A program made the translations under genes and the position numbers. From a phage: DNA of 4,221 bases. Shown piece by piece: positions 1-4,221 of this stretch. Position 1 is the first letter of the stretch. Each line of letters opens with the position of its first letter. The stretch lies in the sequence record NC_138367.1. One strand, given 5' to 3'. The notes beneath the pieces are model-generated. The model saw nothing but the letters and a program-made list of their open reading frames with translations. It made no database searches and was not told the origin of the DNA.

Positions 1-4
1 GGGG

Positions 5-22
5 GACCCCCCTTAGGGGGTC
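5..22 (+). promoter_or_regulatory. 5'-terminal hairpin of the phage RNA within the 5' UTR (1..61); genome begins GGGGG
   Basis: Seen in sequence: 5-GACCCCC-11 pairs with 16-GGGGGUC-22 (7 bp, loop CUUA at 12..15). A G-rich 5' end followed by a stable hairpin is the characteristic 5' terminus of Qbeta-like genomes, whose complement forms the minus-strand 3' end. Confidence 0.7.
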
Positions 23-53
23 ACCTCACACAGCAGTATTTCACTGAGTATGA

Positions 54-58
54 GAGGA
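54..58 (+). promoter_or_regulatory. Shine-Dalgarno element for A2 (GAGGA)
   Basis: GAGGA at 54..58 lies 3 nt upstream of the AUG at 62..64. An in-frame AUG at 50..52 sits upstream of this SD and so has no ribosome-binding site of its own. Confidence 0.6.
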
Positions 59-61
59 CAT

Positions 62-1324
62 ATGCCTAAATTACCACGTGGTCTGCGTTTCGGAGCCGAT
101 AATGAAATTCTTAATGATTTTCAAGAGCTCTGGTTTCCAGATCTCTTTATCGAATCTTCCGACACGCATCCGTGGTACACACTGAAAGGTCGTGTGTTGA
201 ATGCCCATCTTGATGATCGTCTACCTAATGTAGGCGGTCGTCAGATCAGGCGTACTCCACATCGTGCTACTGTTCCGATTGCCTCTTCAGGCCTTCGTCC
301 GGTAACAACCGTTCAGTATGATCCCACAGCACTATCGTTCTTATTGAACGCTCGTGTTGATTGGGATTTCGGTAATGGCGATAGTGCGAACCTTGTCATT
401 AATGACTTTTTGTTTCGTACTTTCGCGCCTAAGGAGTTCGATTTCTCGAATTCCTTAGTTCCTCGTTATACTCAGGCCTTCTCCGCTTTTAATGCCAAGT
501 ATGGCACTATGATCGGCGAAGGGCTCGAGACTATAAAATATCTCGGGCTTTTACTGCGCAGACTGCGTGAGGGTTACCGCGCTGTTAAGCGTGGCGATTT
601 ACGTGCTCTTCGTAGGGTTATCCAGTCCTACCATAAGGGTAAGTGGAAACCAACTACTGCTGGTAATCTCTGGCTTGAATTCCGTTATGGTCTTATGCCT
701 CTCTTCTATGACATCAAAGACGTCATGTTAGACTGGCAGAAGCGCCATGATAGGATTCAACGCCTCCTTCGGTTTTCGGTTGGTCACGGTGAGGATTATG
801 TTGTCAAATTCGACAGCTTATATCCAGCCGTTTCTTACTTTAAACTAAGAGGGGAGATTACACTCGAACGCCGTCATCGTCATGGTATATCTTACGCTAA
901 TCGCGAGGGATATGCTGTTTTCGATAACGGTTCCCTTCGGCCTGTGTCCGATTGGAAGGAACTTGCCACTGCATTCATCAATCCTCATGAAGTTGCATGG
1001 GAGTTAACTCCCTACAGCTTCGTTGTTGATTGGTTTTTGAATGTCGGTGACATACTTGCTCAGCAGGGTCAGCTATATCATAATATCGATATTGTAGACG
1101 GTTTTGACAGACGTGACATTCGACTCAAATCTTTCACTATAAAAGGTGAACGAAATGGGCGACCTGTTAACGTTTCTGCCGACCTGTCTGCTGTCGATTC
1201 ATTTTACAGCCGACTCCATACGACCAAGCTTCCGTTCGCTACACTCGATCTCGATACTACCTTTAGTTCGTATAAACACGTTCTTGATAGTATCTTTTTA
1301 TTAACCCAACGCATTAAGCGTTGA
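62..1324 (+). CDS. A2: A2 maturation protein (attachment to F-pilus; in Qbeta-type phages also the lysis protein, inhibiting MurA)
   Basis: ORF 50..1324 in frame 2. The start is placed at AUG 62 (MPKLPRGLRFGADNEIL...) because it follows the SD. This gives 1263 nt = 420 aa plus UGA stop at 1322..1324, the size and N-terminus I recall for Qbeta A2. It is the first gene of the genome, as in all leviviruses. Confidence 0.9.
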   Translation: MPKLPRGLRFGADNEILNDFQELWFPDLFIESSDTHPWYTLKGRVLNAHLDDRLPNVGGRQIRRTPHRATVPIASSGLRPVTTVQYDPTALSFLLNARVDWDFGNGDSANLVINDFLFRTFAPKEFDFSNSLVPRYTQAFSAFNAKYGTMIGEGLETIKYLGLLLRRLREGYRAVKRGDLRALRRVIQSYHKGKWKPTTAGNLWLEFRYGLMPLFYDIKDVMLDWQKRHDRIQRLLRFSVGHGEDYVVKFDSLYPAVSYFKLRGEITLERRHRHGISYANREGYAVFDNGSLRPVSDWKELATAFINPHEVAWELTPYSFVVDWFLNVGDILAQQGQLYHNIDIVDGFDRRDIRLKSFTIKGERNGRPVNVSADLSAVDSFYSRLHTTKLPFATLDLDTTFSSYKHVLDSIFLLTQRIKR

Positions 1325-1350
1325 AACTTTGGGTCAATTTGATCATGGCA
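1250..1350 (+). promoter_or_regulatory. Approximate S-site (replicase/S1 binding region just upstream of and overlapping the coat start), placed by positional homology
   Basis: Established knowledge for Qbeta: an internal replicase/S1 binding site lies immediately 5' of the coat initiation codon. Coordinates are transferred from memory and not derivable from this sequence alone. Confidence 0.35.
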
Positions 1351-1746
1351 AAATTAGAGACTGTTACTTTAAGTAACATCGGGAAAGATGGAAAACAAAC
1401 TCTGGTCCTCAATCCGCGTGGGGTAAATCCCACTAACGGTGTTGCCGCGCTTTCACAAGCGGGTGCAGTTCCTGCGCTGGAGAAGCGTGTTACCGTTTCG
1501 GTATCACAGCCTTCTCGTAATCGTAAGAACTACAAGGTCCAAGTTAAGATCCAGAACCCGACCGCTTGTACTGCAAACGGTTCTTGTGACCCATCCGTTA
1601 CTCGCCAGGCATATGCTGACGTGACTTTTTCGTTCACGCAGTATAGTACCGATGAGGAACGAGCTTTTGTTCGTACAGAGCTTGTCGCTCTGCTCGCTAG
1701 TCCTCTGTTGATTGATGCTATCGATCAGCTGAACCCAGCGTATTGA
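1345..1746 (+). CDS. cp: Major coat (capsid) protein
   Basis: AUG at 1345 (MAKLETVTLSNIGKDGKQTLVLNPRGVNPTNGVA...) to UGA at 1744..1746 is 402 nt = 133 aa, matching the levivirus coat protein in size and sequence. The ORF-track start at 1321 is a UUG overlapping the A2 stop and is not the real start. Confidence 0.92.
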   Translation: MAKLETVTLSNIGKDGKQTLVLNPRGVNPTNGVAALSQAGAVPALEKRVTVSVSQPSRNRKNYKVQVKIQNPTACTANGSCDPSVTRQAYADVTFSFTQYSTDEERAFVRTELVALLASPLLIDAIDQLNPAY

Positions 1747-2337
1747 ACACTGCTCATTGCCGGTGGTGGCTCAGGGTCTAAACCCGATCCGGTTATCATT
1801 CCGGATCCACCGATCGATCCGCCGCCAGGGACAGGTAAATATACTTGTCCTTTCGCAATTTGGTCCCTAGAGGAGGTTTACGAGCCTCCTACTAAGAACC
1901 GACCGTGGCCTATCTATAACGCTATCGAACTCCAGCCTCGCAAGTTTGATGTTGCCCTTAAAGATCTTTTGGGCAATACAAAATGGCGCGACTGGGATTC
2001 ACGGCTTAGTTATACCACGTTTCGCGGTTGCCGTAGCAACGGTTATATTGACCTTGATGCGTCTTATCTTGCTACTGATCAGGCTATGCGTGATCAGAAG
2101 TACGATATTCGCGAAGGCAAGAAACCCGGTGCTTTCGGTAACGTTGAGCGATTCATTTATCTTAAGTCGATAAATGCTTATTGCTCTCTTAGCGATATTG
2201 CGGCCTATCACGCCGATGGTGTGATAGTTGGCTTTTGGCGCGATCCATCTAGTGGTGGTGCCATACCGTTTGACTTCACTAAGTTTGATAAGACTAAATG
2301 TCCTATTCAAGCCGTGATAGTCGTTCCTCGTGCTTAG
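1345..2337 (+). CDS. A1: A1 read-through protein (coat protein with C-terminal extension; minor capsid protein required for infectivity)
   Basis: The coat frame continues through UGA 1744..1746 into ...TLLIAGGGSGSKPDPVIIPDPPIDPPPGTGKYTCPFAIWSLEEVYEPP...AVIVVPRA and ends at tandem stops UAG UAA (2335..2340). Total is 330 sense codons including the read-through codon. The Gly/Pro-rich linker after the coat domain is typical of A1. Confidence 0.85.
1744..1746 (+). other. Leaky UGA stop codon of the coat gene (programmed read-through site, decoded at low frequency by tRNA-Trp)
   Basis: The coat ends in UGA followed by A (UGA-A). The same frame stays open with no stop from 1747 to the UAG at 2335..2337, which I checked codon by codon. 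This is the hallmark of Qbeta-type A1 read-through. Confidence 0.85.
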
Positions 2338-2342
2338 TAACT

Positions 2343-2347
2343 AAGGA
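2343..2347 (+). promoter_or_regulatory. Shine-Dalgarno element for the replicase gene (AAGGA)
   Basis: AAGGA at 2343..2347 lies 8 nt upstream of AUG 2356. The AUG at 2347..2349 overlaps the SD itself and is therefore an unlikely start. Confidence 0.6.
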
Positions 2348-2351
2348 TGAA

Positions 2352-2371
2352 ATGCATGTCTAAGACAGCAT
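2352..2371 (+). promoter_or_regulatory. Coat-protein translational operator hairpin at the replicase start (repressor binding site and packaging signal)
   Basis: Seen in sequence: AUGCAUGUCUAAGACAGCAU forms an 8-bp stem with a single bulged A (position 2356, the A of the start codon) and a 3-nt loop UAA (2361..2363). The replicase AUG (2356..2358) lies inside the 5' arm. This matches the known Qbeta operator architecture of 3-nt loop plus bulged A. Confidence 0.8.
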
Positions 2372-4125
2372 CTTCGCATAACTCTCTTAGCGCACAATTG
2401 CGCCGAGCTGCGAACACAAGAATTGAGGTCGAAGGTAACCTCGCACTTTCCATCGCCAACGATCTACTGTTGGCTTATGGTCAATCGCCATTTAACTCCG
2501 AAGCTGAGTGTATTTCACTCAGTCCGAGATTTGACGGGACCCCGGATCACTTTAGGATAAATTATCTTAAAGCCGAGGTCATGTCGAAGTATGACGATTT
2601 CAGCCTAGGTATTGATACCGAAGCTGCTGCCTGGGAAAAGTTCCTGGCAGCAGAGGCTGAATGTGCTTTAACGAACGCTCGTCTCTATAGGCCTGACTAC
2701 AGTGAGGATTTCAATTTCTCACTGGGCGAGTCATGTATTCACATGGCTCGCAGAAAAATAGTCAAGCTAATAGGAGATGCTCCGTCCGTTGAGGGTATGT
2801 TGCGTCACTGCCGATTTTCTGGCGGTGCCACAACAACGAATAACCGTTCGCACGGCCATCCGTCCTTCAAGTTTGCGCTTCCACAAGCGTGTACGCCTCG
2901 GGCTTTGAAATATGTTTTGGCTCTTAGAGCTTCTACACATTTCGATATCAGGGTTTCTGATATTAGCCCTTTTAATAAAGCAGTTACTGTACCTAAGAAC
3001 AGTAAAACCGATCGTTGTATTGCTATCGAACCCGGCTGGAATATGTTTTTTCAACTAGGCATCGGTGGCATCCTACGCGATCGGTTGCGTTGCTGGGGTA
3101 TCGATCTGAACGATCAGACGATAAATCAGCATCGCGCTCACGAAGGCTCCGTTACTAATAATTTAGCAACGGTTGATCTCTCAGCGGCAAGCGATTCTAT
3201 ATCTCTTGCTCTCTGTGAGCTCTTATTGCCCCCAGGTTGGTTTGAGGTTCTTATGGATCTCAGATCACCAAAAGGGCGGTTGCCTGACGGTAGTGTTGTT
3301 ACCTATGAGAAAATATCCTCGATGGGTAACGGATACACATTCGAGCTTGAGTCGCTTATCTTTGCTTCTCTTGCTCGTTCCGTTTGTGAGATACTGGACT
3401 TAGACTCGTCTGAGGTCACTGTTTACGGAGACGATATTATTTTACCGTCCTGTGCAGTCCCTGCCCTTCGGGAAGTTTTTAAGTATGTTGGTTTTACGAC
3501 CAATACTAAAAAGACTTTCTCCGAGGGGCCGTTCAGAGAGTCGTGCGGTAAGCACTACTATTCTGGCGTAGATGTTACTCCCTTTTACATACGTCACCGT
3601 ATAGTGAATCCTACCGATTTAATATTGGTTTTGAATAACCTATATCGGTGGGCCACGATTGATGGCGTATGGGATCCTAGGGCCCATTCCGTATACCTCA
3701 AGTATCGTAAGTTGCTGCCTAAACAGCTGCAACGTAATACTATACCTGATGGTTACGGTGATGGAGCCCTCGTCGGATCGGTCTTGATCAATCCTTTCGC
3801 GAAAAACCGCGGGTGGATCCGGTACGTACCGGTGATCATAGACCACACAAGGGACCGAGAGCGCGTTGAATCGGGGTCGTATCTTTACGACCTCTTTTCG
3901 CGTTGTTTCTCGGAAGGTAACGATGGGTTGCCTTTAAGGGGTCCGTCGAGTTGCGATTCTGTAGATCTATCTGCCATTGATCAACTTATCTGTAGGAGTA
4001 ATCCTACAAAGATAAGTAGATCTACCGGTAAGTTCGATATACAGTATATCGCGTGCGGTAGCCGTGTTCTGGCACCCTACGGGGTTTTCCAGGGCACGAA
4101 GGTTACATCTCTACACGAGGTATAA
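2356..4125 (+). CDS. rep: RNA-dependent RNA polymerase, replicase beta subunit
   Basis: AUG 2356 (MSKTASSHNSLSAQLRRAANTRIEVEG...) to UAA 4123..4125 is 1770 nt = 589 aa. The catalytic YGDD motif is encoded at 3424..3435 (TAC GGA GAC GAT, in ...SSEVTVYGDDIILPS...). Size and sequence match the Qbeta replicase. Confidence 0.93.
   Translation: MSKTASSHNSLSAQLRRAANTRIEVEGNLALSIANDLLLAYGQSPFNSEAECISLSPRFDGTPDHFRINYLKAEVMSKYDDFSLGIDTEAAAWEKFLAAEAECALTNARLYRPDYSEDFNFSLGESCIHMARRKIVKLIGDAPSVEGMLRHCRFSGGATTTNNRSHGHPSFKFALPQACTPRALKYVLALRASTHFDIRVSDISPFNKAVTVPKNSKTDRCIAIEPGWNMFFQLGIGGILRDRLRCWGIDLNDQTINQHRAHEGSVTNNLATVDLSAASDSISLALCELLLPPGWFEVLMDLRSPKGRLPDGSVVTYEKISSMGNGYTFELESLIFASLARSVCEILDLDSSEVTVYGDDIILPSCAVPALREVFKYVGFTTNTKKTFSEGPFRESCGKHYYSGVDVTPFYIRHRIVNPTDLILVLNNLYRWATIDGVWDPRAHSVYLKYRKLLPKQLQRNTIPDGYGDGALVGSVLINPFAKNRGWIRYVPVIIDHTRDRERVESGSYLYDLFSRCFSEGNDGLPLRGPSSCDSVDLSAIDQLICRSNPTKISRSTGKFDIQYIACGSRVLAPYGVFQGTKVTSLHEV
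2550..2870 (+). promoter_or_regulatory. Approximate M-site (internal replicase binding region within the 5' part of the replicase gene), placed by positional homology
   Basis: Established knowledge for Qbeta: an internal replicase binding site needed for plus-strand template recognition lies in the replicase gene roughly 1.3-1.6 kb from the 3' end. Coordinates are approximate, transferred from memory, and not demonstrated by this sequence alone. Confidence 0.3.
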
Positions 4126-4133
4126 CCTGGGAG

Positions 4134-4150
4134 GGCGCCAATATGGCGCC
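4134..4150 (+). other. 3' UTR hairpin 1 (GGCGCC / AAUAU loop / GGCGCC)
   Basis: Seen in sequence: 4134-GGCGCC-4139 pairs with 4145-GGCGCC-4150 (6 bp, all G-C, loop AAUAU). It starts 9 nt after the replicase stop. Confidence 0.65.
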
Positions 4151-4151
4151 T

Positions 4152-4175
4152 AATTGTGAATAAATTATCACAATT
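4152..4175 (+). other. 3' UTR hairpin 2 (AAUUGUGA / 8-nt A/U loop / UCACAAUU)
   Basis: Seen in sequence: 4152-AAUUGUGA-4159 pairs perfectly with 4168-UCACAAUU-4175 (8 bp). The loop AUAAAUUA (4160..4167) is exposed and A/U-rich. Confidence 0.65.
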
Positions 4176-4187
4176 ACTCTTACGAGT

Positions 4188-4221
4188 GAGAGAGGGATCT
4201 GCTTAGCCCTCTCTCCTCCCA
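4188..4221 (+). other. 3'-terminal hairpin plus single-stranded CCUCCCA tail (replicase initiation site; terminal A is non-templated in leviviruses)
   Basis: Seen in sequence: 4188-GAGAGAGGG-4196 pairs with 4207-CCCUCUCUC-4215 (9 bp, loop AUCUGCUUAG). The genome then ends ...CUCCCA-3' at 4221. A CCCA 3' end is the canonical Qbeta-type terminus. Confidence 0.75.

Follow-up and report, generated by a model that had tools for sequence, protein, structure and literature searches.

The described phages closest to the sequence studied here are laboratory Qbeta (AB971354.1, Anc(P1); PDB 3mmp, 1qbe, and 5vlz), TW18 (FJ483840.1), the Fr phages FrMerlot, FrHibiscus, and FrBurgundy (PP430142-44), and, on a divergent branch of genogroup III of the F-specific RNA coliphages, M11 and MX1 (AF052431 and AF059242). 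In Qbeta, a UGCUU motif and a long-range pseudoknot to a site ~1,200 nucleotides (nt) upstream have been described (PMC3561173), and initiation at the 3' CCCA end is aided by an internal binding site, the M-site, and by long-range contacts (PMC4176380). Here, we analyzed sequence record NC_138367.1, a stretch of 4,221 nt given as one DNA strand from 5' to 3' and referred to below, at its full length, as the window. Almost certainly, the window represents, as complementary DNA (cDNA), the entire plus-strand genome of a naturally occurring Escherichia phage Qbeta strain (Qubevirus durum, Fiersviridae; genogroup III). Qbeta is among the most thoroughly characterized viruses; the genome, the virus, and the A2 and coat proteins are already known and public, and biologically the window adds nothing new.

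Relationship of the window to Qbeta-group genomes

The window was compared by megablast with 50,697 phage records. All 81 matches were to Qubevirus, 33 of them covering at least 80% of the window, and the full-length matches to Qbeta-group genomes showed 92 to 96% identity (E = 0), far beyond chance. The initial annotation had described a Qbeta-type RNA phage of a known kind; with no best match unrelated to the leviviruses, that reading stands, and neither the genome nor the virus is new. The alignment to Qbeta-group genomes is collinear from end to end, and in the annotated records the four genes are the same and lie at corresponding positions. Likewise, the window follows the Qubevirus genome plan, with 4,221 nt of plus strand and the order maturation-coat-replicase, all on one strand.

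In a ten-genome MAFFT alignment, full-length nucleotide identity to the window was 95.9% for TW18, 95.8% for FrHibiscus, 95.6% for FrMerlot, 94.7% for Qbeta Anc(P1), 92.3% for BZ1, 91.9% for VK, and 91.8% for BR12, falling to 71.1% for M11 and 70.3% for MX1. A neighbor-joining tree placed the window inside the Qbeta/TW18/Fr clade. Membership in Qubevirus durum is supported by the 94.7% nucleotide and 96.1% replicase amino acid identity to Qbeta Anc(P1), and the nearest records are classified in that species.

TW18 is collinear with the window over its full length, has the same gene order, and is identical at bases 1 to 38 and at the last 16 bases. The two differ by about 170 substitutions, and protein identity is 96.4% for A2, 98.5% for coat, 96.1% for A1, and 97.1% for replicase. 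The Fr phages show 95.5 to 95.8% nucleotide identity to the window, and the coat protein of FrHibiscus is 100% identical; their records are incomplete at the 5' end, and that of FrHibiscus at the 3' end as well. Laboratory Qbeta has the same four products, operator hairpin, read-through context, and 3' domain architecture as the window. M11 and MX1 share the genome plan and the pseudoknot partner described below, whereas their nucleotide identity to the window is about 71%, with protein identities of 65 to 68% for A2 and about 70% for replicase. Record NC_001890.1, labeled "Escherichia phage Qbeta," has match coordinates, identity, and score identical to those of MX1 (AF059242.1), and its identity to the window is only ~75%. 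The sequence seems to be that of MX1 rather than of classical Qbeta, which makes the label a naming trap if the record is taken as the Qbeta reference.

The exact A2 and coat proteins of the window are on record as ACT66733.1 and ACT66734.1, each on a 4,221-nt contig. The window is therefore the whole record, with no flanks, which also answers the earlier question of flanking vector or host sequence. These accessions are numbered between those of TW18 (ACT66729-32, FJ483840) and BR12 (ACT66737-40, FJ483842), and FJ483837-39 are genogroup II strains (PMC3499819). From the two protein accessions and their contig, the window is very probably GenBank FJ483841. The genogroup III strains in a published table are Qbeta, BR12, BZ1, VK, TW18, HL4-9, M11, and MX1 (PMC6963950); by elimination from this table, the strain is probably HL4-9, a hog lagoon isolate.

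Some points weigh against reading the window as a complete natural Qbeta genome. The record identity was drawn from protein accessions and the 4,221-nt contig, and the strain name by elimination; the fifth G at the 5' end is seen in no independent record, and a later paper by the same authors says only "primer walking" (PMC3499819); and A4205, a base in the pseudoknot loop, departs from an otherwise invariant position. Nonetheless, there is no substantive evidence against a Qbeta genome.

Alternative origins of the sequence

Three other origins were weighed. One is integration, as DNA, into a bacterial chromosome or mobile element, and we found no points in its favor. The window had no match in 5,426 complete Escherichia coli genomes (20,395 records), no replicase relative was found among the genomes of 185,579 species (one genome each), and the exact A2 and coat proteins lie on a contig of just 4,221 nt. 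The probability of an integrated copy is thus negligible, and this origin is refuted as far as the searched collections allow. A laboratory full-length cDNA clone or engineered construct, such as a plasmid insert, has a very slim chance. Qbeta cDNA plasmids do exist, and the presentation as DNA would fit one, yet no tool result supports this origin. Vector sequence is present at neither end, where the bases are those of other complete genomes; there was no match among the 72,556 plasmids of PLSDB; and the phages most closely related to the window were isolated from the environment in Taiwan and the USA. Moreover, ~5% of positions differ from laboratory Qbeta, genome-wide and with a ratio of nonsynonymous to synonymous substitution rates (dN/dS) of about 0.09, a pattern of natural divergence.

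A chimeric assembly, or a natural recombinant of two cocirculating Qbeta-group strains, is somewhat less improbable than a clone but still unlikely. The best-matching strain per 300-nt window of the alignment does alternate between TW18 (mostly 1 to 900 and 2250 to 3150) and the Fr phages (about 900 to 2250 and 3150 to 3900), and environmental leviviruses have been proposed to recombine (PMC3499819). However, the candidate parents differ by only 1 to 3 percentage points per 300-nt window, and no segment is near-identical to any strain (at most 99.0%, typically 95 to 97%). The identity comparison revealed no clear breakpoints, and the pattern fits rate variation within one clade. The preferred reading remains a single natural Qbeta strain.

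The same searches bear on the nature of the molecule. The initial annotation had placed the window outside bacterial chromosomes and plasmids, in agreement with its absence from the E. coli genomes and plasmids and with the lack of replicase relatives in the species genomes. This absence is consistent with a single-stranded RNA genome that would have no DNA stage. In the IMG/VR and JGI metagenomes, replicase relatives were distant only, with at most 46% amino acid identity, all on contigs of 1 to 4.4 kb; at that identity they were of no use as a check on the termini. Promoter-like and minus-strand features had been held not to apply to such a genome, and this was borne out: σ70-like promoter sites were not enriched (2 found versus 5.7 expected), and the minus strand resembled shuffled sequence, its longest stop-free stretch of 113 codons being reached by 70 of 200 shuffles. 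The further claim that only the plus strand is informational holds in that the minus strand is noncoding, but the minus strand is still a functional replication template.

Gene products

The window encodes the four expected products on the plus strand, with the sizes given in the initial annotation (420, 133, about 330, and 589 amino acids). The coding share is 4,026 of 4,221 nt, or 95.4%, and not the 97% claimed earlier. Mechanically called open reading frames (ORFs) begin upstream of the real start codons, at 50 versus 62, 1321 versus 1345, and 2347 versus 2356.

The A2 maturation/lysis protein gene (62 to 1324) encodes 420 amino acids, belongs to Pfam PF03863 (E = 1.6e-137), and matches the Qbeta A2 structures PDB 5vlz and 5mnt (E about 1e-282). 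The coat protein gene (1345 to 1746) encodes 133 amino acids and matches Pfam PF01819 (E = 2.7e-61) and PDB 5kip and 1qbe. It appears to end in a leaky UGA (1744 to 1746) and to continue in frame into the extension of A1, the read-through itself being predicted. This UGA is the sole in-frame stop within A1 (1345 to 2337; 330 amino acids), and its context, UAU UGA ACA, is the same as in Qbeta. The extension (1747 to 2337) spans 196 codons after the UGA and carries the Pfam PF16814 read-through domain (E = 2.1e-94). The replicase beta subunit, an RNA-dependent RNA polymerase (2356 to 4125; 589 amino acids), matches Pfam PF03431 (E = 4.7e-216), has YGDD at residue 357, and matches the Qbeta replicase structures PDB 3mmp, 3agp, and 4q7j at 1,312 bits. 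Compared with four strains, dN/dS was 0.05 to 0.23 in every gene (0.07 to 0.10 for A2 and 0.07 to 0.09 for replicase), and all four gene products are under purifying selection.

Relative to Qbeta, TW18, BZ1, VK, and BR12, the window has a 3-nt insertion at ~1798 to 1800, which adds one Ile in the A1 linker (PDPVIIPDPP). Because of this codon, A1 is 330 amino acids long versus 329 in laboratory Qbeta, and the window is 3 nt longer than TW18. In FrMerlot and FrHibiscus, this Gly/Pro-rich linker contains three extra residues, the A1 of the Fr phages being 332 amino acids long; therefore, the length of the linker between coat and the read-through domain varies between strains.

Across the coat/replicase junction, no alternative-frame ORF is open in all ten genomes, and a 75-amino-acid ORF at 1946 to 2173 is interrupted in TW18, M11, and MX1. 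The genome would thus have no separate overlapping lysis gene, unlike the MS2-type Emesvirus, with the lysis role assigned to A2 by homology. Hidden overlapping or minus-strand genes were considered more broadly and rejected, as there was no long conserved ORF and the minus strand was no more open than shuffled sequence. Four unannotated ORFs of 41 to 47 amino acids, at 845 to 988 and 2334 to 2459 on the minus strand and at 2777 to 2908 and 3659 to 3787 on the plus strand, are stop-free in all ten genomes, including M11 and MX1; given the 18 ORFs examined and the short lengths, they may be due to chance. Separately, the 90%-identity cluster of the coat protein includes a 137-amino-acid partial "hypothetical protein" (TNU90119.1/WP_218975557.1) encoded on a Lactococcus cremoris contig of 428 nt. 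Rather than a bacterial gene, it most likely reflects contamination of that assembly with Qbeta or a Qbeta spike-in.

Genome ends, operator hairpin, and replication pseudoknot

Positions 1 and 4221 appear to be the native genome termini, judging by start and end bases shared with other complete records. The 5' untranslated leader (1 to 61) begins with a G-rich terminal hairpin, GGGGGACCCCCCUUAGGGGGUCACCUC (1 to 27; -21.3 kcal/mol, z = -2.1), so that the GGGGG hairpin start noted in the initial annotation is present, with five G's here and four in laboratory Qbeta. The stem C7-C11/G16-G20 is invariant in 8 genomes, and bases 1 to 22 are the same in four other complete Qbeta-group records, those of TW18, BZ1, VK, and BR12. 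The window and the other FJ4838xx strains have the form G5-A-C6-UU, versus G4-A-C5-UUU in laboratory Qbeta; written out, the starts are GGGGGACCCCCCUUAGGGGG (five G's, C6, and U2) and GGGGACCCCCUUUAGGGGG (four G's, C5, and U3), respectively. The C6-UU form also occurs in the Fr phages, from an independent laboratory, with FrMerlot providing the independent support, whereas only FJ4838xx records show the fifth G, which might reflect how they were sequenced. The later paper by the same authors, on other strains, refers to primer walking as described earlier and does not state the method used for the terminal bases (PMC3499819).

The coat protein operator hairpin lies at the replicase start (2349 to 2375, plus strand) and is the predicted minimum-energy fold. 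Its core, AUGCAUGUCUAAGACAGCAU (2352 to 2371), in which A2356 of the AUG is bulged, matches the Qbeta operator, with 8 bp, a bulged A, and a 3-nt loop, and is the same in all seven Qbeta-clade genomes.

The 3' untranslated region coincides with the 3' terminal domain (4126 to 4221, plus strand). A closing stem, 4128 to 4133 with 4216 to 4221, sequesters the CCCA end, and the predicted hairpins lie at 4134 to 4150, 4152 to 4175, 4176 to 4187, and, for U1, 4188 to 4215 (loop, 4197 to 4206). The domain folds at -47.8 kcal/mol (z = -7.4; none of 200 shuffles as good), with compensatory changes in 10 of 34 pairs across nine genomes. This fold agrees with the published Qbeta 3' domain, in which interaction ld IX closes the domain and U1 is the final hairpin (PMC3561173). 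The CUCCCA terminus reported in the initial annotation is in place: the window finishes with ...GCCCUCUCUCCUCCCA, and the terminus ...CCCUCUCUCCUCCCA recurs exactly in eight further complete genomes of alloleviviruses. Among these are the divergent M11 and MX1, which also share the 3' CUGCUUUGCCCUC...CUCCUCCCA motif with the window. A search of Rfam 15 on both strands, with E values up to 1, matched no family to any part of the window, including the operator hairpin, 3' domain, and pseudoknot; the sole hit, mir-2574, was rejected as chance (22 bits versus a gathering score of 90, E = 0.36).

The loop of U1 holds the family-wide UGCUU motif at 4200 to 4204, and its complement, AAGCA, occurs at 2978 to 2982. 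The upstream partner of the long-range pseudoknot would be UAAAGCAG (2976 to 2983, plus strand), which is invariant in all ten genomes and lies ~1,220 nt upstream of the U1 loop, the exact base assignment being our own. At position 4205, the window has a private U-to-A change, reading CUGCUUAG where the eight other genomes covering the site, including TW18, M11, and MX1, have U within CUGCUUUG. Since A2977 in the partner UAAAGCAG is unchanged, the seventh pair becomes an A-A mismatch, leaving six contiguous pairs intact; the predicted energy of the duplex falls only from -8.9 kcal/mol to -7.7 kcal/mol in the window. A4205, which lies 17 nt from the end, may reflect either genuine variation or an error and, if the outermost ~20 nt stem from primers, could even fall within one. 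IMG/VR was scanned with a 17-mer of the 3' hairpin, ATCTGCTTWGCCCTCTC, for independent records of A or T at this position, but the 14 loci found had nothing else in common with the window by blastn and were therefore rejected as chance matches.

Established knowledge of Qbeta, carried over by homology, suggests how this genome would work. The genomic RNA would itself serve as messenger RNA. A2 would bind the F pilus and bring about lysis; coat would build the capsid and repress replicase translation through the operator hairpin at the replicase start; and a few percent of ribosomes would decode the coat UGA as Trp, giving A1. The replicase beta subunit, with host EF-Tu, EF-Ts, and S1, would copy the RNA from the 3' CCCA end, with initiation helped by the folded 3' domain and by the long-range pseudoknot to a site ~1.2 kb upstream. 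The M-site spans Qbeta nt 2545 to 2867, corresponding to about 2549 to 2871 in the window after an offset of +4.

The main use of this finding lies in sorting scan results: because the window is an RNA phage genome, it is not to be mined for promoters, terminators, or minus-strand genes. Two features are of slight interest, namely, the one-codon difference in A1 linker length and the single-base variant in the loop of the replication pseudoknot. One passage of PMC3561173, citing Klovins and van Duin (1999), describes this pseudoknot as essential for Qbeta replication. We consider it unlikely that the U-to-A change is genuine, as opposed to an error of sequencing or cloning, such that a natural strain of Qbeta is viable and replicates despite a single uncompensated pseudoknot mismatch. 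If A4205 is true, however, it would help to define the minimum pairing needed by a pseudoknot whose reported role in minus-strand initiation is essential.

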